DNA of 64,000 bases, taken from the IMG/VR virus record IMGVR_UViG_3300007513_000003. The stretch is one strand, 5' to 3'. Positions 3,131 to 43,750 of this stretch are shown one piece after another (the stretch's first letter is position 1; every line of letters begins with the position of its first letter). Source of the DNA: a virus (taxonomy: Duplodnaviria > Caudoviricetes). Position numbers and translations under genes: made by a program. The notes under the pieces are model-generated. The model had not been told where the DNA came from. It made no database searches and saw nothing but the letters and a program-made list of their open reading frames with translations.

Positions 3131-3559
3131 TTAATATATAAAAATAGATATTATAGTATAAAATACTATAAACAACATTACATAATTCAATAAACGACTT
3201 GATGAGTGTCGCTTTTGAGGATGTAGAAGACCTTGTCTTTCTTCCCACGTTGTGTTTGCTTCTAATACTTGTGTAAAGTGTTCTACTTTAAGTCTACCTT
3301 CTAATATAAATTTACCAATTGCTTCTTGCAACTCTATACGCACAGGAAAAGGAAGTTGCAACTTATTAGTTGGCATTAGTGAAAAATTACGTGACCACTT
3401 ATCCCAAGGATCACCTTGTACACCTACTTGACTGTGTGCATACATATAGGTTTGTTCGTCAGTATAATTTTGGACACTACTAACAACATTAATAAGTTGG
3501 CAATCTGTTAAACCTTGTACTATGACTTCTTGAGCATTGTCTGAGTATGTTGTTTTCAA
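3131..3559 (-). CDS. hypothetical protein with C-terminal TM helix
   Basis: 142-aa ORF in a coupled gene run. Confidence 0.65.
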   Translation of the reverse strand: MKTTYSDNAQEVIVQGLTDCQLINVVSSVQNYTDEQTYMYAHSQVGVQGDPWDKWSRNFSLMPTNKLQLPFPVRIELQEAIGKFILEGRLKVEHFTQVLEANTTWEERQGLLHPQKRHSSSRLLNYVMLFIVFYTIISIFIY

Positions 3560-5710: not shown

Positions 5711-7780
5711 TTAACCAGTGCGTTTTGTGATCATTTCAGTGATATTAGCAGGGCACGGTGCGTAGTGACTAAACTCCATACTAAACTGACCACGGCCGCT
5801 CGTCATACCACGCAAGTCGCCAATATAGCCAAACATTTCACCAATTGGTGCTTCTGCCCAAATGCGTACCTTTTGTCCACTAACTTCTTGATTGCTAATC
5901 ATGCCGCGGCGTCTGTTAATGTCGCCAATAACGTCACCAACTTTATCCTCTGGAGCAATTACGTCAAGTTTCATGACAGGCTCTAGTAATTGTGGTCCTG
6001 CTTTAGGCATGGTTTGTCTAAAGCCACCTCGAGCCGCTAATTCAAACGCAATAGCACTTGAGTCAACTGCGTGTGAAGAACCGTCTGTTAATGTCACTTT
6101 AAAGTCTAACAACGGATAACCTGCTACAATGCCGTTATTAGCAGACTCTCTAAAACCTTTTTCAACAGCAGGCCAAAACTCTCTTGGCACATTACCACCG
6201 ACAACTTTTGATTCAAACTCAAAGCCGCCGCCTGATGGCAATGGCTCTATAGTATATTCAATATCACCAAATTGGCCAGAACCACCTGATTGCTTTTTAT
6301 GAACAAATTTGTCTTCCACTGTTTGTGTAATAGTTTCTCTGTATGCTACTTGTGGTTTACCAATACTTACTTCAATGCCATGGGTTCTTTTAAGAATGTC
6401 GCACTTAATGTCTAAGTGTAGTTCGCCCATACCCTTAAGAATAGTTTGCCCACTTTCTTGATCTGTTTCAACATGGAAGGACGGATCTTCAGCGACCATT
6501 TTACCAATAGCAGTTCCTAACTTATCCATGTCACCTTGTGTCTTTGGTTCAACAGCAATACTAATAACCGGGGCAGGGAATACCATTGGCTCTAGTACGG
6601 CGGGTTTATTTTTATCACACAGTGTATGACCTGTTTGTACAGTTTTCATACCAAGCAATGCAATAATATCGCCTGCTTGTGCAGAGTCCTTTTCTTCTCT
6701 ATTGTCGGCATGCATTTCTACAATACGGCCAACACGTTCGGACTTGCCTGTGCTACTGTTATAAATTGTATCACCTTTGTTAAGTTTGCCAGAGTAAATG
6801 CGTGTAAATGTCAATGCACCATACTTGTCGTCCATAATCTTAAACGCAAGTGCTCTTAGTGGTCTGTCATCATCAACAATAGCATGTTCACCTGTTTCAT
6901 TGCCTTCTAAGTCTACTTCTGGCTGTGGATCAACCTCAGTAGGATTAGGCAAATAATCAACCACGGCACTCAATACATTTTGTACGCCTTTATTTTTAAA
7001 TGAACTACCACAGAATGTTGGGAAGAAATCACAATTAATTGTACCCTTGCGAATACACTTTTTAAGATCTTCTTCGCTAATGCTGTCAGGATCCTCCATC
7101 CACTGCATCATTACATCGTCGTCTTGCTCTACAACTTGCTCTACCATTAGATCATAATATTCTTTGGCCTTGTCTGCCAAGTCTGCAGGAATGTCGCTAA
7201 TAGTGTAAGAAGTAGGATCTGCTGAATTTGACCAGGCCCATGCTTTTTGCGTAAGAATGTCTACAATGCCTACAAAATCATCTTCAGCACCAATTGGAAT
7301 AGCCATAATAACTGGTACTGCGTTTAAGCGATCTTTAATTTGCTCTACTACACGATAGAAATCTGCACCAACTCTATCCATTTTGTTAACGTAAATAACA
7401 CGGGCAACTTCACTGTCATTAGCATAACGCCAGTTTGTTTCGGATTGTGGTTCTACGCCTCCTACCGCGCAAAAAACACCAACGCCACCGTCTAATACTT
7501 TCAATGAGCGGTATACTTCAATTGTAAAGTCAACGTGTCCTGGTGTGTCAATAATGTTAAACTGGTGGTCATCCCAAAAGCATGTTGTAGCGGCTGACTG
7601 AATAGTAATACCGCGTTCCTGCTCTTGCTCCATAAAATCTGTAGTAGCGGCGCCGTCATGTACTTCGCCTATCTTATGGATTTTACCTGTTAGTTTTAAA
7701 ATGCGCTCTGTTGTTGTAGTTTTACCTGCATCAACGTGAGCGAAAATTCCTATGTTTCTATACTTTTGTAGATCTGACAT
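5711..7780 (-). CDS. fusA: translation elongation factor G, full length (689 aa)
   Basis: [15 protein letters not shown] (G1), RGITI (G2), DTPGHVDF (G3), NKMD (G4), [30 protein letters not shown]. Confidence 0.97.
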
Positions 7781-25388: not shown

Positions 25389-25417
25389 ATTATATATTAC
25401 ATTACGGTCATTGTCAA
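25389..25417 (-). promoter_or_regulatory. sigma70-type promoter
   Basis: TTGACA-N17-TATAAT. Confidence 0.8.
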
Positions 25418-26436
25418 GAAATAGCGTATTTGTTTAGATTGCGCTCGAATTCGCTCAAACGTTTATATATTGAACGCAATTCTGTAATTGTTGTCCAGTT
25501 ATGCAAGAATAATGCAAACCCACCATGTACTTTCTGGAACGCATTTGACACTTGCACTACTACACCTAATAATACAGCACCAGTAAACAAACTTGGACCT
25601 ACGATTAAGTAAGGCACAATAACCATTGCTTGATCATACATAATCATCCATGTGTCAAAATATCCATAGTGTAAGTACAAACGTTGATAGTTGAAACGTA
25701 TGCCTGTGAATAAACTTGCTAATGTTTCTGGTTGTGCATAGTTTACTTTGTCATCTTCACCAAACACTAAATCCTTTCTAAATGCGGCTTCGACACGTTG
25801 ATTGTTATATTCAAGTCCGGGCAGTTTAATACCTACAAACCATGAAATAACCAACCCGCCTATAGATACAAATAATGCTACCCATACAAGTGAGCCAGGA
25901 ATGTCGCTAAAGAATGGAATAGTAACTGAAGAACTTAACCCCCACAGCACTGGAATAAACGCAACGAGTGTCATTAACGCCCGCACAACTTGCAATCCCA
26001 AACTTTCTACAATTCTAGCAAACCGATTGCAGTCCTCTTGAATACGCTGTGATGCACCTTCAATTTCTTCTTCAACATTGCGCCAACGCGGAATGTAGTC
26101 AAAGGTCATTGCCTCTCGCCAACGGAGTCCGTATATGCGTGTAAACCACCCAGTGAGCACCGCTAACAGCACATATGGAAATGCTAATACAGCAAATGAG
26201 GGATCACCATCACTAAAATATTGTAAGCCTAGTAATTTTTCATAAAATAAAGAAATGCCTTCACTGGCATTATTTTTATATTCACCAGACTTTTGTAGTA
26301 AGTCATAAAATCCACCATACCATGTGTTTATCGCTACTGTTAATTGAACTTGTAACCATAACGATATAACTAATAGAGAGCCACCGCCATAAGCCCATAG
26401 TGCCCATTTCTTAGTTTTATAAAATGCTTTTATCAT
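25414..26436 (-). CDS. sbmA: SbmA/BacA-like peptide transporter
   Basis: QVQLTVAINTWYGGFYDLLQ, EGASQRIQED, NNQRVEAAFRKDLV, multiple TM helices. Confidence 0.8.
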   Translation of the reverse strand: MIKAFYKTKKWALWAYGGGSLLVISLWLQVQLTVAINTWYGGFYDLLQKSGEYKNNASEGISLFYEKLLGLQYFSDGDPSFAVLAFPYVLLAVLTGWFTRIYGLRWREAMTFDYIPRWRNVEEEIEGASQRIQEDCNRFARIVESLGLQVVRALMTLVAFIPVLWGLSSSVTIPFFSDIPGSLVWVALFVSIGGLVISWFVGIKLPGLEYNNQRVEAAFRKDLVFGEDDKVNYAQPETLASLFTGIRFNYQRLYLHYGYFDTWMIMYDQAMVIVPYLIVGPSLFTGAVLLGVVVQVSNAFQKVHGGFALFLHNWTTITELRSIYKRLSEFERNLNKYAIS

Positions 26437-28795: not shown

Positions 28796-29577
28796 GAATA
28801 CATACTTCCATATAAATCTAAATAAGGTACTAACACATTTTTACACCAGTCACAATGACCTTCATAACTCGGATGCATCCCGTCTTCATAGAGGGTAATA
28901 TTTTTATCTATAGACCATTGCAGTATGCTTTTTTCTAGAGGTATTACTTTAATATTAGAATATCTATGTAAAAAATCCAATGTTTGTGGGTACATCTCGT
29001 CTTTGTATTCTCCATACCAATCCCAACCAAAATATAATATTATTTCTTTGACCGTATTAGACCATAAGCCTATATTAACAAGCGTTTCTTGCAAATGATA
29101 AATTGTTCGGGTAAGGCAGCCAAATTTCATTTCATAATGAAATCTTTGATTGTTTGCTCTAATACTTATTGCTTTCCTGTTAAAAATACTCCATTCTTCT
29201 TCAGTATAACTTTTTAGTTTATTGTGATAGAACCACATCCAATCCCAGTCAGGTTTCTTCTCAACGTCGTCTTCCCCATATTTAAGACCATGAAACTCTA
29301 CATCTTGATCGTCATTCAATAGATAAAAAAGTCTATCTGGCGCTGTTAACTGCCAAAGTAGTGTGGTATCTTTATTAATTAAATTTTTTGCATAAAGATT
29401 AGATAATCTATGGTGTTGTAAATAATTGTCTCCACCGCCTTGTGAAATATGTTTAATATCTAAACTATAGGTACCATTTAAATAGTGCACATAGCCGTGC
29501 TGTTGAGTTAAACTACATCCTGTTAAACTACATCCTAAAGCAACATATTTGTAAGGCGTTTCTTCTTTCGTTTCCAT
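28792..29577 (-). CDS. SGNH hydrolase-like protein
   Basis: ALGCSLT, GGDN, DGMHPSYEGH; start inferred from TAAATA-N5-ATG. Confidence 0.6.
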   Translation of the reverse strand: METKEETPYKYVALGCSLTGCSLTQQHGYVHYLNGTYSLDIKHISQGGGDNYLQHHRLSNLYAKNLINKDTTLLWQLTAPDRLFYLLNDDQDVEFHGLKYGEDDVEKKPDWDWMWFYHNKLKSYTEEEWSIFNRKAISIRANNQRFHYEMKFGCLTRTIYHLQETLVNIGLWSNTVKEIILYFGWDWYGEYKDEMYPQTLDFLHRYSNIKVIPLEKSILQWSIDKNITLYEDGMHPSYEGHCDWCKNVLVPYLDLYGSMYS

Positions 29578-29589
29578 ACACATATTTAG

Positions 29590-29847
29590 TGGGGGCGACT
29601 TTGTTAAGAAGGTGTCGCCCCCGAAACCCCCTACGCGACCGCTAATTAGGCGGCTAATGCGTAATCGTAATAATCGTCATTTGCAATTATATAGTTTGCT
29701 GTTTTTTAATATGGAACTGCTCCCATATGTCGTCCATTTATCCTCTTCACCCTGTCGAAACTGTGTCACCCCCGTAAAAAATTTGGTGGAGGTGCCGGGC
29801 ACTGCCCCCGGGTCCAGAATGCGTACTTTCAACTTCATACGACAATC
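29590..29847 (-). ncRNA. ssrA: two-piece (circularly permuted) tmRNA; tag ANDDYYDYALAA
   Basis: Minus strand: acceptor piece ...GGACCCGGGGGCAGTGCCCGGCACCTCCACCA (ends 29784), 10-nt intervening segment, coding piece GGGGGTGACACAGTTTCGAC (starts 29773); 7-bp acceptor stem with G3:U70; tag ORF 29646-29684; late box 29853-29860. Confidence 0.93.
29591..29622 (-). terminator. GC-rich hairpin at the 3' end of the tmRNA coding piece
   Basis: GGGGGCGAC...GTCGCCCCC. Confidence 0.65.
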
Positions 29848-29872
29848 AAAATTATTTATATAGGTGTAGAAG

Positions 29873-29902
29873 AATAAAGGAATACCTGAGCATTCCTTTA
29901 TT
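29873..29902. terminator. 11-bp perfect hairpin between rpmG and ssrA
   Basis: AATAAAGGAAT-N8-ATTCCTTTATT. Confidence 0.65.
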
Positions 29903-30071
29903 TAATTTTCTTTTCTTCAAACCAGACGTGTTTTCTTAAAACTGGATCGTATTTCTTTTTACGTAGTTTTTCAGGATTGCGTCCGTTTTTAGTAGTAGTA
30001 TAATAGTAGCCAGTGCCTTCTGTTGACACTAGTTTAACTATTCTAATTGATTTACTAGTAGGATAAGACAT
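29898..30071 (-). CDS. rpmG: 50S ribosomal protein bL33 (57 aa, non-zinc type), absent from the ORF track
   Basis: Hand translation [57 protein letters not shown]; TAATG coupling to the upstream ORF. Confidence 0.93.
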
Positions 30072-30397
30072 TAGTATTGATTTTTTGTTGTGTTGTCGGC
30101 AAACGCATGATTGTCAATAACATGTTCTTTTGCTTTTTCATTTGTCATTTCATCAGATGTTTCCGGAATAAAAGGAACATCAAGATTTGTGTAAATGTTA
30201 TACCAACGTGATGATGGGCCCCATGTTGCGGGCCCGCAATCGAAATATGGTGTTTCAGTGTACCTATGTGTTTCTTTGAGTATTTGTTTTGAATTTGATT
30301 CTTGCAGATCTTTACAAAATGCGTAAAAAGTTTCTGCTTTTTCAACATCGCCTTCTGCAAGTTTGAGACACTCTAATTTTAAAGTTGAGTCATCCAT
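30071..30397 (-). CDS. hypothetical protein
   Basis: [10 protein letters not shown]-terminus; SD-like AGGA. Confidence 0.65.
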
Positions 30398-30411
30398 AAT
30401 CAAATCCTATA

Positions 30412-30579
30412 TTAGTCTTGCCAAATTCTCCATGCACCGTAAATAATAGCGGCCCATGCAATCCAAGTAACTAGTGGTGAAAATAATAGTGCAAGAACAC
30501 CAACACCTACTAGTACTGTGCCATCCCAAGTTGATCTTTCTGACCATTTTGCTTTGGCCCAATCAATTAAATTAAACAT
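30412..30579 (-). CDS. 55-aa membrane protein, absent from the ORF track
   Basis: Hand translation MFNLIDWAKAKWSERSTWDGTVLVGVGVLALLFSPLVTWIAWAAIIYGAWRIWQD; SD AGGAG. Confidence 0.7.
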   Translation of the reverse strand: MFNLIDWAKAKWSERSTWDGTVLVGVGVLALLFSPLVTWIAWAAIIYGAWRIWQD

Positions 30580-30602: not shown

Positions 30603-30902
30603 TTATTTATCCGCTTCTACTTTAACTTGTAGCGGATAATTATTATTTCGTGCCAAAAGTGTCACTTCAATACCGTGTTGTTCAGCAATTTCATATGGCA
30701 AAATAGCAACAATAGCAGAACCTTCTGCATCTACTTTATATGTTAGTTCTTGTGCTTCTTCTAATGTGTGGCTAAACACAGTCATAAGAACATTAACAAC
30801 AAAGTCCATTGGTGTTACATCATCATTGATGAATATAACTTTATACAATGATGGCTCTTTTAAATCTAATTGCTTTTTAATCTTGGTTGCAGTATCAGAC
30901 AT
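30603..30902 (-). CDS. clpS: ATP-dependent Clp protease adaptor ClpS
   Basis: EPSLYKVIFINDDVTPMDFVV.VL..VF, V..EGSAIV, YEIAE, YPLQVKVE. Confidence 0.92.
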   Translation of the reverse strand: MSDTATKIKKQLDLKEPSLYKVIFINDDVTPMDFVVNVLMTVFSHTLEEAQELTYKVDAEGSAIVAILPYEIAEQHGIEVTLLARNNNYPLQVKVEADK

Positions 30903-31465
30903 TAATTATCCTTTTCGTAATCTTTCTTAATATTTTTATCTACAAAGTCTTTTAGTCTATATATTTTATATCTTGCGCCTTCTCGAGTTTGTCCACTTTG
31001 CCCTCGCTCCAGCATACCCTCTAAAAATTCAATAACTAGTGGGTTTCCTTTTTTCTTTGCTTCTCTTCCACGTTTAAGTTCTTCTTGCATTTCTCGTGAG
31101 AAAGGTATTTTATATAAACGAGTATTTCTCTCTCCTAAATGTTGCACCCATATTTCTATTACATGCCCTTGTCGTTGTCCATCAAGTAGCACAACTTTTC
31201 CTGAAGGGTATGTAGGAAGTGCATATCCTAGAAAATTATTTAACTTCACTATTGTACTATAGAATAAGAAAAAAATCAATGGAATTGTTAAAAACTTTAT
31301 ATAAAACTTAGCTGGTGTTTTTAGTAATGCGTATAATACTAATATTGCTAATACTAGCATGGCACCCAATTGTAAACCAAACTCGTATATAATATTATAC
31401 CAGTCTGATAAAACGATTTCATCCGTAGTATAATCAGTAAAATCTATTATTTCTTTCTCTGACAT
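30902..31465 (-). CDS. membrane protein, third gene of the ExbB/MotA-type module
   Basis: Two N-terminal TM helices; coupled gene order. Confidence 0.65.
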   Translation of the reverse strand: MSEKEIIDFTDYTTDEIVLSDWYNIIYEFGLQLGAMLVLAILVLYALLKTPAKFYIKFLTIPLIFFLFYSTIVKLNNFLGYALPTYPSGKVVLLDGQRQGHVIEIWVQHLGERNTRLYKIPFSREMQEELKRGREAKKKGNPLVIEFLEGMLERGQSGQTREGARYKIYRLKDFVDKNIKKDYEKDN

Positions 31466-31467
31466 AA

Positions 31468-32298
31468 CTAATTAGTTCCCTCTTGTTGCCATTTTCTCAA
31501 TTGAGTTGTCATTCCATCCCATAGACTAGGATCATATGTATCACCAATTGCCATAGGATGATTGCCATTATCGTCTTCAAAGTGTGTTAACCCATCTGTA
31601 TATACAAATGGTGTCGGATGATTATTAACGTATTCTATAGAATATGTATAACTTTGGGTACCGTCTGGGGTTGCGATTCCATTCTCTCTTTGTACAACTG
31701 TAAAGTTAAATGCAGTAACTTCTTCGCCAGTTTCTGTCATTTCAAATTTGGCAGTAGTAATTTCTTTAAACGGATTTACTCTTACTAATTCAACTGTTAC
31801 AGGTATTGGATATTTGGGAGGATTTGGAGATATGTCCTCAGGATTATCTGCTCCCGTGTATCCGGAAAGTCTTGACCGATGTGCATAATAGTGTACATTA
31901 ACTGTCCATTCACCTGGAATCCAGCCACGTATAGTAGCAACTTCAACATTTTCATCTACTGCTACTATAGTGCCGTCTGCTAACATAAGTGTATCGTTTG
32001 CCGCGCCCAAATCATCTCTATCTAAATGCATTAAGCCTGATGTGCGCGATTTAAAACTAACAACATTACCTTCAGGATCTTTTACCCACAAGTCAATATC
32101 ACTGTAATTGCCAACTTCCCAAGTCAATGTAATAATTAGTTCAGACTTAGGGTCTATTTTTTTATTCGTAGGTATAGGAGGTTGTATTAGCAAAAAAGAG
32201 ATAACAAACAGAAATACGAAACCTACTAATGTATTAAAAAGTAGATCAGTAAATCCTAGTCCTGAAAATTTTGATCGCTCACGCTTTCCTGTGGTCAT
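31468..32298 (-). CDS. single-TM partner of the MotA/ExbB-like protein
   Basis: GFTDLLFNTL (conserved TM Asp as in ExbD/TolR/MotB), then DIDLWVKDP periplasmic domain. Confidence 0.65.
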   Translation of the reverse strand: MTTGKRERSKFSGLGFTDLLFNTLVGFVFLFVISFLLIQPPIPTNKKIDPKSELIITLTWEVGNYSDIDLWVKDPEGNVVSFKSRTSGLMHLDRDDLGAANDTLMLADGTIVAVDENVEVATIRGWIPGEWTVNVHYYAHRSRLSGYTGADNPEDISPNPPKYPIPVTVELVRVNPFKEITTAKFEMTETGEEVTAFNFTVVQRENGIATPDGTQSYTYSIEYVNNHPTPFVYTDGLTHFEDDNGNHPMAIGDTYDPSLWDGMTTQLRKWQQEGTN

Positions 32299-32749
32299 AT
32301 TCTAAGTTTATCAATTGAAGTTTTGAAAGTAACGAACACGTTAAACCCACCAATGTAGTAGTTAATGCTGTACTCATACCAGCAGCCATGTCGCGAATGA
32401 CTTCTTTTGCCTGTCCGATGTTTGATAAATCTAGATCGTTAAACGAGCCACCAAGCATTATAATAAATCCAGTTACTGTTCCAATTAGTCCTAGTGATAC
32501 CATCGACTCGGCGAAGAACCAAGATACTTCTATAGATCTAAAGTTTAATGGTTTGCGTTTAGAAACTTTGTATGTTTGTAACCCTATATTGGCTGTTACG
32601 CCTGTAAACAATGCTATAATAAAGAAACTAATTTTTGTTTGGTCTAAATACCAAAGAGTACGCCACATATCAAAATAATATAATACTGCGGCACTACATG
32701 CTATTACGCAGGTCAATAACCACCACTTTAAGAAACTATTAGACTTCAT
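32279..32749 (-). CDS. MotA/TolQ/ExbB proton channel family protein
   Basis: SLGLIGTVTGFI, GMSTALTTTLVGL; start inferred from TAAATA-N5-ATG. Confidence 0.85.
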   Translation of the reverse strand: MKSNSFLKWWLLTCVIACSAAVLYYFDMWRTLWYLDQTKISFFIIALFTGVTANIGLQTYKVSKRKPLNFRSIEVSWFFAESMVSLGLIGTVTGFIIMLGGSFNDLDLSNIGQAKEVIRDMAAGMSTALTTTLVGLTCSLLSKLQLINLEYDHRKA

Positions 32750-32792
32750 TAATATATTTATGTAAAAGAATATTATTATAAATATTTGTACC

Positions 32793-33860
32793 ATGCACGA
32801 CAAAAAGTTCTTTTGTATAGAGCCTTTCGTAAGTCTTTCTATAGTTAAAGAAGATCATATTTTTCCTTGTTGTCTTAATGAAGGGCAAAAAAGCACTCAA
32901 AAAGATGACCTATGGAACGATCCTTATCTTGAAAATATACGAAAACAAATTCTAAACAACGAAGTTCCTGAAGAATGTCGCGCCTGTGTTGAACAAGAAA
33001 AGTTTGGTCGATATAGCAGACGATTACATTCTAATGATGTTTGGTTAGAACAACACGGCAATTTTGAAGATGCTCTTGAAAATGATGCTCCGTATAAGTT
33101 AGATTTTTGGACTGGAAACTTGTGTAATTTGGCTTGTAGTACTTGTACATATACAAATAGTTCATCATGGTTTACACTTCTTAAAAAAGCAGATAAAGCA
33201 GGAAAAACTGATTTACGTTATAAAGGAAACTATGTAAGTAATTTAGATTACTCTTATGAATTTAAAAAAGAAGATATTCCGAATATTGACTTTAAAAATA
33301 TGGAAAATATACACTTCAACGGCGGTGAACCCTTGCTAACAGATTCACACTTTAAAATTTTAAATTTAATTCCGCCAGAACAAAGAAAGGATGTTTATGT
33401 CATTTATAACACAAACGGTACCGTCAGAATAGATTTAGAAGATGAAAAATGGAGTATTTTCAAAGAATACAAAAGTGTCGATATGTGTTTTAGTATAGAT
33501 GGCATTGAAGAAACATTTAATTATGTTAGATGGCCTGCTAAATGGGAAGAAGTACAAAGCAACATTGATCTATGGGCTGAATATTGTTATGGAAAATATG
33601 ATGACTGCCACTTTGAAATGAGTGTAAACATGGTAAAAACTCCGCACAATTATACAACGTTTGATAATGCCGTTAAATATGTCACTGATCGTTGGTTTAC
33701 CAAACTTATTGCGATTCGAAACGCAAGCATTGATGAATATGTGTTTACTACTAATGATCATTCTTTTATGGATTGGTCAGACGCACAATTTGAAGAATAC
33801 ACAAAGACAGAAGAATTTTTCTTGCAAACAAAAAATTTAGAAACACTACGAAATCTTTGA
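32793..33860 (+). CDS. radical SAM protein with N-terminal SPASM/twitch-like Cys cluster
   Basis: CNLACSTC, FNGGEPL, FSIDG; N-terminal FCIEPF..PCC..CRAC. Confidence 0.88.
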   Translation: MHDKKFFCIEPFVSLSIVKEDHIFPCCLNEGQKSTQKDDLWNDPYLENIRKQILNNEVPEECRACVEQEKFGRYSRRLHSNDVWLEQHGNFEDALENDAPYKLDFWTGNLCNLACSTCTYTNSSSWFTLLKKADKAGKTDLRYKGNYVSNLDYSYEFKKEDIPNIDFKNMENIHFNGGEPLLTDSHFKILNLIPPEQRKDVYVIYNTNGTVRIDLEDEKWSIFKEYKSVDMCFSIDGIEETFNYVRWPAKWEEVQSNIDLWAEYCYGKYDDCHFEMSVNMVKTPHNYTTFDNAVKYVTDRWFTKLIAIRNASIDEYVFTTNDHSFMDWSDAQFEEYTKTEEFFLQTKNLETLRNL

Positions 33861-33964: not shown

Positions 33965-34399
33965 ATGACAGAGTATAGAATCACATCTGGGAATCTAATC
34001 CCAACACTTAACCGACACATGGTAGGCTTCGATCGTCTCTTTGGCGATATGGACAGATTGTTTACAAGGGGCCAAGCACCATCTTACCCACCTTACAACA
34101 TCGAAAAACTTAGCGATACAGAATATGTTATCACTATCGCTGTCGCTGGTTTTGATCAAGGTGATCTTTCAGTAACCGTTGACAACGGCGTTCTTAATGT
34201 CTCAGGACACAAAGAAGATTCAGATAAGCAAACATGGTTACACAAGGGCATCGCTACACGCGACTTCCAACGCTCTTGGAACCTTGCTGAATTTGTTAAG
34301 GTTGTCTCAGCAGAGTGTAAAAACGGTATGCTTGAAGTTCGTTTGGTTCAAGAAGTTCCTGAAACCGCTAAACCCAAGGAAATTGAGATTAAATTTTAA
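33965..34399 (+). CDS. ibpA: small heat shock protein Hsp20 (IbpA-like)
   Basis: VGFDRLF, YPPYNI, IAVAGF, LHKGIA.RDF.R, NGMLEV.L...VPE. Confidence 0.92.
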   Translation: MTEYRITSGNLIPTLNRHMVGFDRLFGDMDRLFTRGQAPSYPPYNIEKLSDTEYVITIAVAGFDQGDLSVTVDNGVLNVSGHKEDSDKQTWLHKGIATRDFQRSWNLAEFVKVVSAECKNGMLEVRLVQEVPETAKPKEIEIKF

Positions 34400-34470: not shown

Positions 34471-34782
34471 TTAGTATAATCTATTTTTACTAGGTATTCT
34501 TTCTGCTTGCTCTTTAAGATGCCGCTTGCGGGCAACGTCTCTTGCTCTTTTTCTTTTAATACTTGGCTTTTCATAATGTTCGCGGGCTTTTAGTTCTTGC
34601 AATTTGCCGTCGTTGTCTATTTTCTTCTTAAGTTTACGTATTGCCTTTTCAACATTTCCGTCATTAACCCAAACTCTGAGTCCTGTAATTTTTACTGGAG
34701 CCCGTTTATCTTTTTGTTTGAATGGCGCTCTTCTATTATTATTCCATTTTGTATTTCTATTATTCCAAGTTTGTGCCATCAT
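34471..34782 (-). CDS. rpsU: 30S ribosomal protein bS21 with basic N-terminal extension
   Basis: V.VNDGNVEKAIRKLKKKI, REHYEKPS.KRKR. Confidence 0.88.
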   Translation of the reverse strand: MMAQTWNNRNTKWNNNRRAPFKQKDKRAPVKITGLRVWVNDGNVEKAIRKLKKKIDNDGKLQELKAREHYEKPSIKRKRARDVARKRHLKEQAERIPSKNRLY

Positions 34783-37492: not shown

Positions 37493-38338
37493 TTAATTAT
37501 TATACATTTCCATAGCACGAATAAAACGTGTCATACCAATGCCACCGCCTACTCTTGGAAAGAAGTCCATTGCTAAAAAGTCTTCCAACTCTTTTTCAAC
37601 TCTTTCTCTACCAAACGTATCAAATAGTATATTAGCATAACCGCCGTCACTAATAGTATGGAACATATGTTTCATTTGTTCTTTATCTGTAGCACGTTCT
37701 GCTGATCCAATTGTTTCTTGTCCAGCAATAATAACATCAATCTTTGCCGCAGTTTCGCCATCGTCGTTTTGTTTCATGTTCCAAAATGGACTTGTGTAGT
37801 TTGGAAAGTTTTTAATCATTGCTACACGGCCATTAAAGTTTTGGCACATTTTTTCTTCATGCTCGTGTTCTAATTCTTTAACGCCGTAAATATCACACCA
37901 TTCTAAATAATCTTTAGCAACAATGTTTTCGCCATCGGACCATGTTAAGTAGTCCATAAGTTCGCGTTCCATCTTCTCTAAATCTAAAATAGTTCCTGGA
38001 AACTCAAACTCAAACATTGGAAATATTAGTTCATGTCTACCAGCTACCGGATTTGGCTCTTGCCTATAGGAGGTGGAAATACAAAAAAACCCCGGAACGT
38101 CGGGGCGTGTTAGTAATTCATGTTCGAGCCACATTTGGCCCGTTTGTGGCAGGGGCCATAGTTGCCCTGCGTAATTATAGGTCGCTATTGTTGTTGGATC
38201 TTCGCATGCCGCTAGTATGCTTAATCTATTTTGTGTGTGTACTTCTAAGAATCCTTTAGCCATAAAAAAAGACCTTAATAGGTCTGCGGCTTGTGTAAAG
38301 TGTTGTGGATTGATAAGTTGTGTCATTGTTTTCTCCAT
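37493..38338 (-). CDS. class II aminoacyl-tRNA synthetase catalytic-domain protein (Asn/Asp/Lys-like, no anticodon domain)
   Basis: Motif 2 SYRQEP...RH..IFPMFEFE, ETIGSAER, motif 3 PRVGGGIGMTRF; only 281 aa. Confidence 0.85.
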   Translation of the reverse strand: MEKTMTQLINPQHFTQAADLLRSFFMAKGFLEVHTQNRLSILAACEDPTTIATYNYAGQLWPLPQTGQMWLEHELLTRPDVPGFFCISTSYRQEPNPVAGRHELIFPMFEFEFPGTILDLEKMERELMDYLTWSDGENIVAKDYLEWCDIYGVKELEHEHEEKMCQNFNGRVAMIKNFPNYTSPFWNMKQNDDGETAAKIDVIIAGQETIGSAERATDKEQMKHMFHTISDGGYANILFDTFGRERVEKELEDFLAMDFFPRVGGGIGMTRFIRAMEMYNN

Positions 38339-42861: not shown

Positions 42862-43152
42862 TTATCCCACACTAATGCCAGTTGTTCCTTGGATATATTG
42901 ATCTGCCATTGGCTTTACTGTTTTGCCGATAACCATACAATGGGATTTGTCTAGTGTGACAGTAGAATCTAACTCCATAGTAAACATAAACTGAGAAATT
43001 CCGACCCCTTGCGGGCCCATTTGTAGAGACATAGGTTTTTCTATTGTGATATGAGTTTCAGTTTCGTCACTAAATCTACCAATAACTTCTTCACCAGATG
43101 TTAATTTAATTGAGATAACATCATTCTTTTTATAATTGACTTCTAATAACAT
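42862..43152 (-). CDS. conserved phage protein, possible Sm-like fold
   Basis: DVISIKLTSGEEVIGRF...ITIEKP. Confidence 0.55.
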   Translation of the reverse strand: MLLEVNYKKNDVISIKLTSGEEVIGRFSDETETHITIEKPMSLQMGPQGVGISQFMFTMELDSTVTLDKSHCMVIGKTVKPMADQYIQGTTGISVG

Positions 43153-43750
43153 TTGTACTTTCCTTGAATATTTTTATTGCACTAGTGCATATTAATAAAG
43201 CAATACCTCCGCCTATAACGATATCTGGAATATTGCTTTGTGTAAACATTACCAATAATCCTGCTATAATAATACCAACACTTGATAATGCATCATTTCT
43301 ACAACATATATAAGCACTCTTAAGATTAATATCTTTGTTTCTATAATATAACAATATTACTGCTGATATAATATTTCCTATTAATACAAAAATACCTACA
43401 TAAGTTATAGGGTGTGGATCAGGAACATATCCCGTCATAATGTTATTAAGGACATATACTAATGCCATAATACCAAACGCAAACATTATTATTGATTTGA
43501 CTAACGCTAGTTTGGCTTTTGTTTTTACTGCTGATCCTATAACAACTATACTACTTCCTAATATAAGTGCATCGCCTATATTATGAGCACTATCACTTAA
43601 TAAACTTACTGAATGAGACAATATACCATAATATAACTCTAATCCAAACATAAGTGCATTGATTAAAAAGCATATGATTAGTGCGTTGCGTTCACAGGCT
43701 TGGCATTGATCGACTGGCCGGCACGTATCATCGAGACATAAACGAAACAT
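43130..43750 (-). CDS. cation diffusion facilitator (CDF) family transporter, TM domain only
   Basis: SVSLLSDSAHNIGDA, CCRNDA, PDIVIG; six TMs. Confidence 0.8.
   Translation of the reverse strand: MFRLCLDDTCRPVDQCQACERNALIICFLINALMFGLELYYGILSHSVSLLSDSAHNIGDALILGSSIVVIGSAVKTKAKLALVKSIIMFAFGIMALVYVLNNIMTGYVPDPHPITYVGIFVLIGNIISAVILLYYRNKDINLKSAYICCRNDALSSVGIIIAGLLVMFTQSNIPDIVIGGGIALLICTSAIKIFKESTNVIRSQL

Follow-up and report, generated by a model that had tools for sequence, protein, structure and literature searches.

Ribosomal proteins encoded by viruses have already been described, and bL33 is among them. Mizuno et al. (2019, Nat Commun 10:752; PMC6375957) found bL33 on 12 viral contigs, all of them environmental and none of them temperate, which belong to several independent viral lineages and for some of which the predicted hosts are Alphaproteobacteria; the pN/pS of these genes was 0.09. 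The same survey found bS21 on 1310 viral contigs, so the claim made in a preliminary description of the DNA considered here, that bL33 is much rarer than bS21 in phages, holds. It is also reported there that E. coli 70S ribosomes take up viral bS21 and bL12 (the experiments were on bS21, bL12 and HPF only), that bL33 belongs to a small set of loosely bound ribosomal proteins exchangeable between ribosomes in vivo, and that bL33 contacts the E-site tRNA (PMC6375957). Another related system is the jumbo cyanophage PhiMa05 (ISME J 2026, PMC13157829), in which bL33 is adjoined by a tRNA-Trp gene and accompanied by the ribosomal proteins bS1, bL21, bL27, uL11 and uL1. A third is that of the Methylophilales phage Melnitz and the pelagimyophages, marine T4-like phages of streamlined bacteria in which a permuted tmRNA was described by Buchholz et al. 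(2022, PMC9004378).

The gene that concerns us here lies on the minus strand of a 64,000-nt stretch of the IMG/VR virus record IMGVR_UViG_3300007513_000003 (Duplodnaviria; Caudoviricetes), hereafter the window, at positions 29898–30071. It resembles the viral bL33 genes of Mizuno et al. in its family, in its aquatic and non-temperate setting and in being under strong purifying selection (dN/dS 0.065–0.147 here, pN/pS 0.09 there), but for those genes no tmRNA or ClpS neighbour is mentioned, the word tmRNA having no occurrence in the text and supplements searched (PMC6375957). As in PhiMa05, which also has a tRNA gene next to bL33, bL33 is accompanied in a giant phage by other ribosomal proteins; however, the phage group and the host are different, the partners here are bS21, EF-G and tmRNA (with bL31 in one relative), and PhiMa05 was absent among the protein matches to the phage bL33 in the phage collection searched. 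The permuted tmRNA is shared with Melnitz and the pelagimyophages, but L33 and ClpS have no occurrence in the report on those phages (PMC9004378), whereas here bL33 directly precedes the tmRNA gene.

The open reading frame, taken from the ORF list, has 57 codons and an ATG start. According to the preliminary description, it matches bL33 throughout and has no CxxC pairs, and an HMM search was proposed there as a check. Three profiles scored above their cut-offs: Pfam PF00471 (Ribosomal_L33) at 57.1 bits (E = 2.3e-15, cut-off 25), over positions 2–47 of its 47, and, from NCBIfam, TIGR01023 (rpmG_bact) at 64.1 bits (cut-off 23.95) and NF001860 at 67.3 bits (cut-off 50). The motifs quoted in that description are present, there is no cysteine among the 57 residues, and the four zinc-ligand cysteines are therefore absent along with any CxxC pair, so that both statements are borne out. 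A sequence search of the PDB returned only bL33 chains of solved ribosomes (E around 1e-14), those of Psychrobacter, Deinococcus, E. coli, Pseudomonas and Acinetobacter, at 58–64% identity. An AlphaFold2 model of the phage protein (pLDDT 81.3) predicts four strands, and Foldseek superimposed this model on its best PDB matches with an rmsd of 0.6–0.9 Å, a TM of 0.88–0.93 and an identity of 55–64%; the top 50 PDB matches listed were chains of ribosome entries. The small four-strand ribbon of ribosome-bound bL33 is reproduced in the predicted phage model.

The sequence core of the family is likewise kept in the phage protein (KLVS, TG-aromatic-YTT-KN, KYDP, the H and the C-terminal E-K). In an alignment of nine bL33 sequences, the invariant positions are K13, L14, V15, S16, T25, K35, K40, Y41, D42, P43, V44, H48, E53 and K55, and in a comparison of 25 sequences they are Y24, K35, D42 and H48. 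Two features set the phage protein apart from the cellular ones: a conserved extension at its N terminus, MSYPTSKSI, and a loop that is one residue shorter. A scan of PHROGs v4 gave no family for it, nor for five of the neighbouring genes. That the frame is open merely by chance, in DNA that is AT-rich, was considered and is ruled out by the E-values of the HMM searches and by the conservation of bL33. On the evidence of its sequence and of its predicted fold, the frame is a genuine bL33.

bL33 is the final cistron of a tightly packed run of seven genes on the minus strand, which encode, from 5' to 3', a MotA/ExbB-like protein, proteins of 276 and 187 aa, ClpS, a 55-aa membrane protein, a 110-aa protein and bL33. 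The first three, given by the ORF list at 30902–32803 (minus strand; PF01618 25.9 bits for the MotA/ExbB-like protein), have the same order in L002, L088–L094 and L103; the likely start of the MotA/ExbB-like gene is at 32749, and TAAATA, 5 nt before the ATG, is a phage late-type box at the start of the operon. Next come a ClpS-like Clp protease adaptor of 99 aa (30603–30902, minus strand; PF02617 94.6 bits; phrog_27368), which is 84% identical to that of L002 and 73% identical to those of L103–L107, and a predicted membrane protein of 55 aa (30412–30579, minus strand, from the ORF lists), which has 59 and 53 aa in relatives and no Pfam or PHROG match. Directly upstream of bL33 lies the gene of a conserved protein of 108–110 aa with no assigned function (30071–30403, minus strand, with a likely ATG start at 30397), for which no Pfam or PHROG family was found and for which the Atlas search gave no usable neighbour. 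Four homologues of this protein align at 34–79% identity, with conserved N- and C-terminal ends and a variable middle. RNA-library contigs from three studies carry 250 unlike letters in place of the 259 at 30143–30401, in the middle of this frame, between flanks that are 95–99% identical. The middle of the protein is thus a hypervariable cassette, whereas its ends and bL33 are conserved.

The stop codon of the 110-aa frame and the start codon of bL33 share one base in a TAATG junction (30069–30073, minus strand, from the sequence and the ORF coordinates), which is an overlap of the coupling type. The overlap into bL33 is also 1 nt in L001 and L002, and it is 7 nt in L103; no Shine-Dalgarno-like sequence was found upstream of the bL33 ATG. 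The earlier proposal that bL33 is translationally coupled in the clpS run agrees with this overlap with the upstream gene, clpS itself lying 530 nt upstream on the same strand.

At the other end of the gene, the bL33 stop codon lies within a 13-bp hairpin, followed by UUCUUCU, at 29873–29902 (minus strand). The hairpin is present in the window and in L001, in both with −14.9 kcal/mol and z −6.3, and missing from the L103 lineage, and it may be a terminator or an element for RNA stability or processing. Between the hairpin and the body of the tmRNA, a TATAAATA box that has the T4 late-promoter consensus was read from the sequence at 29853–29860 (minus strand); its function is putative, and its counterpart is CATAAATA in L001, with none in L002 or L088. 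The tmRNA gene itself, which is circularly permuted, is in two pieces and has the tag ANDDYYDYALAA, lies at 29555–29882 (minus strand; ARAGORN 29555–29876; Rfam RF04321 121.8 bits, RF01849 83.7 bits) and begins 15–21 nt past the bL33 stop in the window. The two-piece tmRNA is conserved in the relatives with compensatory changes in the T arm. By the Rfam models, the tmRNAs of L102, L088, L101 and L103 pass the threshold of beta_tmRNA (87–100 bits), and 29588–29882 of the window is an alpha_tmRNA with 83.7 bits. In L001 (around 580–770), about 190 extra nucleotides separate the acceptor piece, with its CCA end, from the coding piece, as against about 10 nt in the window, and ARAGORN misreads the tag of L001 at this segment. 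The distance between bL33 and the tmRNA also varies: the gap from the bL33 stop is 7 nt in L103, where there is no hairpin, and in L002 a gene for a 238-aa protein stands between the two (L002 6184–6900), a remnant of which is found in L088 (6171–6554). The presence of this gene and of its remnant in otherwise near-identical contigs amounts to a recent insertion or deletion within this set of genes.

bL33 is flanked on both sides by syntenic phage genes, and the same block is found on IMG/VR contigs of up to 235 kb; the gene is carried by a viral genome and not by a prophage flank or a mis-binned host contig. Host contamination had been considered as the source of bL33, and this synteny rules it out. 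The PHROGs of the window include virion and baseplate-like proteins, a ribonucleotide reductase (RNR) and phage-only families. A DNA search against deposited phages gave a sole match of 72 nt, at the T-arm region of the tmRNA, and a protein search of deposited phages gave only L33 of the bacterial type (64% identity), either in records that resemble host DNA or in large Campylobacter phages. Beside none of the viral bL33 copies examined is there an L28 (rpmB) gene.

Other genes of the window concern translation. A bS21 of 103 aa is encoded 4.4 kb upstream of bL33 (34471–34782, minus strand; PF01165 58.8 bits, TIGR00030 58 bits), with an N-terminal extension of about 35 residues and its domain at 37–90; it is present in all the bL33-bearing relatives examined, and the lineage therefore has at least two ribosomal proteins. 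A full-length, five-domain EF-G (5711–7780, minus strand; TIGR00484 952.7 bits against a cut-off of 659; phrog_6880) is also found in G204 and G205. The class II aminoacyl-tRNA-synthetase catalytic core of 281 aa at 37493–38338 (minus strand), of the Asp/Asn/Lys type (PF00152 55 bits), is without an anticodon-binding domain and scores far under the asnS and aspS cut-offs, and its role may be that of a modification enzyme or of an amino-acid ligase that does not depend on tRNA. Also encoded, and conserved in relatives, are an HSP20 small heat-shock protein (33965–34399, plus strand) and an SbmA/BacA-like inner-membrane transporter (25414–26436, minus strand; PF05992 408 bits).

The conservation of bL33 extends over three sub-lineages. 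Among the IMG/VR contigs, the bL33 of L001 is 96% identical and that of L002 77% identical to the window's; the L002 type (L002 and L088–L094, 77%) appears in the index for 97 blocks of the assembly collection, those examined being the 24 with the longest contigs, and a third sub-lineage (L103–L107, with contigs of up to 235 kb) has a bL33 that is 67% identical. All three have, in this order, a MotA-like gene, two genes of unassigned function, ClpS, a small ORF, an ORF of 100–114 aa, bL33 and the permuted tmRNA. The pairwise dN/dS of three bL33 alleles is 0.065–0.147 at a dS of 0.6–1.4, and the reading frame is intact in all seven lineage-A loci of IMG/VR and in all seven sequenced P0003 contigs. 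Because bL33 is conserved in these sub-lineages with such dN/dS values, it is old in the phage lineage and under purifying selection. Scans of IMG/VR based on ClpS and on the tmRNA pattern gave no contigs beyond those already found. In the RNA libraries of four studies, there are assembled contigs with a bL33 that is 95–99% identical, and one of these contigs spans the 55-aa ORF, bL33 and the acceptor piece of the tmRNA, ending in ...CCUCCA. These contigs are consistent, as weak evidence, with the expression of bL33 and perhaps with read-through into the tmRNA, given that they are assemblies and not transcripts, that DNA carry-over is possible, and that their gaps in cover and differences in depth between genes are uninterpretable.

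As for the origin of the gene, a word-indexed protein search with the phage bL33 gave 10 candidates, the nearest cellular ones (metagenomic copies) being up to 79% identical, and an exhaustive search of representatives gave 1366 bL33 matches, of which the best was 74% identical and among which no separate viral cluster emerged at the 50% level. In the contexts examined on the nearest cellular contigs (P0005, P0006 and P0010), the gene lies in an rpmB-rpmG pair with typical bacterial neighbours. The best 80 loci, from a scan in which each species was represented by a single genome, comprise 66 from Gammaproteobacteria, 6 from Alphaproteobacteria and 8 from unclassified Pseudomonadota. The phage protein is like the RpmG of Gamma- and Alphaproteobacteria (E. 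coli, Pseudomonas, Psychrobacter; PDB 4ybb, 8rwg, 8rd8) in its length class, in being Cys-free and in its predicted four-strand fold; however, the cellular copies examined are in rpmB-rpmG operons, whereas the phage gene has no L28 neighbour and has the extension and the shorter loop described above. In a tree of 95 bL33 sequences, the lineage of the window groups with other viral copies, weakly supported (SH-aLRT 80), and since this tree is based on 55 columns and has few supported forks, it does not resolve whether the donor class was gamma or alpha. The gene would have been captured long ago from a proteobacterium-like cell.

What, then, does the phage do with this protein? We think it rather likely that the gene is a functional, virus-encoded bL33 of proteobacterium-like origin, kept by uncultured marine T4-like giant phages, the product of which most likely enters host 50S subunits. 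It would be translated as the last cistron, by re-initiation at the TAATG overlap; the protein would then settle in host 50S subunits at the usual place of bL33, close to the E site, either by exchange with the host bL33 or during the assembly of new subunits, and, alongside the phage bS21, EF-G and tmRNA, it would keep or tune translation capacity during infection. The similarity to cellular bL33, the conserved core, the purifying selection and the exchangeable nature of bL33 together make the normal 50S site the best-supported mechanism, against which count the added N-terminal residues and the shorter loop that distinguish the phage protein from cellular bL33. That the phage protein is swapped into host 50S subunits is probably the right reading, being the standard and the most plausible one; we infer the incorporation, and the benefit to the phage, by analogy.

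One alternative is a role off the ribosome, in which bL33, as a small and basic protein, would bind RNA, for instance to chaperone or regulate the tmRNA precursor or phage mRNAs, or would serve as a decoy by which a host factor is titrated. The conserved, phage-specific N-terminal extension, the shortened loop and the coupling to the conserved 110-aa protein without assigned function speak for such a role, but the identity of 58–64% to ribosome-bound bL33 runs along the whole domain, the near-invariant positions of the family are kept in the same predicted fold, and purifying selection acts on the gene no less strongly than on cellular ones, all of which is what a kept rRNA-binding surface would predict; we regard the off-ribosome role as unlikely. 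Another possibility gives weight to the place of the gene: bL33 would be kept beside the tmRNA because the two are functionally joined in rescue and proteolysis, with ClpS redirecting the tagged proteins. In variants of this explanation, the phage bL33 at the E site would make it easier for the phage tmRNA to pass or to be released, or a single transcript would be processed in such a way as to set the ratio of bL33 mRNA to tmRNA. It is in keeping with this that bL33 lies 7–21 nt upstream of the tmRNA in the window, L001 and L103–L107, that ClpS is upstream throughout though bL33 has diverged to 67% identity, that the tmRNA of the L103 lineage follows the bL33 stop at 7 nt with no hairpin, that the RNA-library contig ending in ...CCUCCA runs from the 55-aa ORF through bL33 to the acceptor piece, and that bL33 has been reported to contact the E-site tRNA (PMC6375957). 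Adjacency by itself, however, counts for little; the gap is longer in L002 and L088–L094, where the 238-aa gene or its remnant intervenes; in the window, the strong hairpin and the TATAAATA box part bL33 from the tmRNA, an arrangement suggestive of separate transcripts; in other viral lineages, bL33 adjoins ordinary tRNA genes or none; a search for SmpB (PF01668) did not find it in the records of three relatives, which are 19–67% complete; and the contig is no transcript. A functional joining of bL33 to the tmRNA is therefore, in our opinion, improbable. Its more specific form, in which a single conserved module of bL33, the adjoining two-piece tmRNA and ClpS would reprogram ribosome rescue, with the phage bL33 altering the E-site region of host 50S subunits in favour of the phage tmRNA and its Tyr-rich tag, or being co-dosed from a tmRNA precursor, and with ClpS steering the tagged products, seems to us very unlikely.

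A further explanation, which builds on the preliminary description, starts from the absence of cysteines: the phage protein would be a zinc-sparing substitute, which replaces a zinc-binding host bL33 in zinc-poor seawater and thereby frees zinc or allows ribosome synthesis, with a CDF transporter belonging to the same metal programme. In its lack of CxxC pairs, the phage bL33 does resemble the Zur-regulated C-minus AltRPs of Mycobacterium, Streptomyces and Bacillus, in which C-minus L33 paralogues are induced by zinc limitation (PMC3087516). Those proteins, however, are second copies beside a zinc-binding bL33, whereas the phage gene comes from the proteobacterial type, which is single-copy and Cys-free. 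The L33 domain has no cysteine in 80 of the 80 nearest cellular homologues (the few that were counted sit in over-extended N-terminal ORF calls) or in any of the 31 alphaproteobacterial sequences read; the contexts are the housekeeping ones of rpmB-rpmG; and 197 of the 201 alphaproteobacterial genomes sampled have an L33 match, 196 of them exactly one. Moreover, Table 2 of Chen et al. (2009, PMC3087516) lists L33 in the C-minus form only for the alpha-, beta- and gamma-proteobacteria and the Bacteroidetes, so the likely host groups offer no zinc-binding bL33 to replace. No zinc-binding counterpart that the phage protein could displace in the same cell was thus found in the donor and likely host groups, whose only bL33 is C-minus. 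From the Cys-free homologues, the single copies and this table, it follows that the Cys-free state is an inherited default of the donor group and not an adaptation to zinc limitation, and, as the default form in proteobacteria, a Cys-free bL33 is on its own no signal of zinc limitation. The idea of a zinc-independent replacement is accordingly not supported.

The CDF gene on which that explanation also draws is real and is kept in two relatives, but it is 13 kb away in another block (43130–43750, minus strand; Cation_efflux 75.2 bits, profile 2–198 of 285), it belongs to an exporter family, and it encodes the membrane domain without the C-terminal cytoplasmic domain (TIGR01297 81.6 bits against a cut-off of 82.35); the link to metal status drawn from it does not stand. 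The gene is followed by an overlapping 96-aa ORF without a family match, and its 219-aa frame is conserved in the two relatives. There is no Zur-box-like palindrome near the operon, the single match, at 3148, being at chance level and the consensus used being one that may not be the host's. Also against zinc sparing, the 235-kb relative G203 encodes a bL31 of the zinc-binding form (PF01197 100.6 bits), with a four-Cys motif at Cys16, 18, 37 and 40, where E. coli RpmE has its zinc ligands. This bL31 (L158 1524–1739, or IMGVR_UViG_3300009370_001221 170023–170238) brings the ribosomal proteins of that relative to three (bS21, bL33 and bL31); it was not found in the 64-kb window by tblastn. In the relative, it sits between genes that are glutamine synthetase-like and PurC-like, as named from their translations. 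Altogether, we give the zinc-sparing explanation hardly any credence.

The entry of the phage bL33 into host 50S subunits thus being the preferred reading, there remains the matter of its position next to RNA genes. Independent viral bL33 lineages in IMG/VR (L109–L111, L112–L115 and L126) directly adjoin tRNA genes: in one of them, a tRNA-Ser gene lies 6 nt downstream, and another is flanked by genes for tRNA-Val, tRNA-Met and two tRNA-Leu. bL33 may travel with, or settle in, islands of tRNA and tmRNA genes.

Given that virus-encoded bL33 is already known (PMC6375957), the order ClpS ... bL33 - tmRNA and the co-occurrence with bS21, EF-G and the zinc-type bL31 of a relative are modest additions, and the conserved adjacency of bL33 and the tmRNA is a small new observation. 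Since it combines bL33, bS21, EF-G, tmRNA and ClpS (and bL31 in one relative), the lineage is a good candidate for testing the entry of viral ribosomal proteins into ribosomes, and such proteins bear on the extent to which phages remodel the translation machinery of their hosts.
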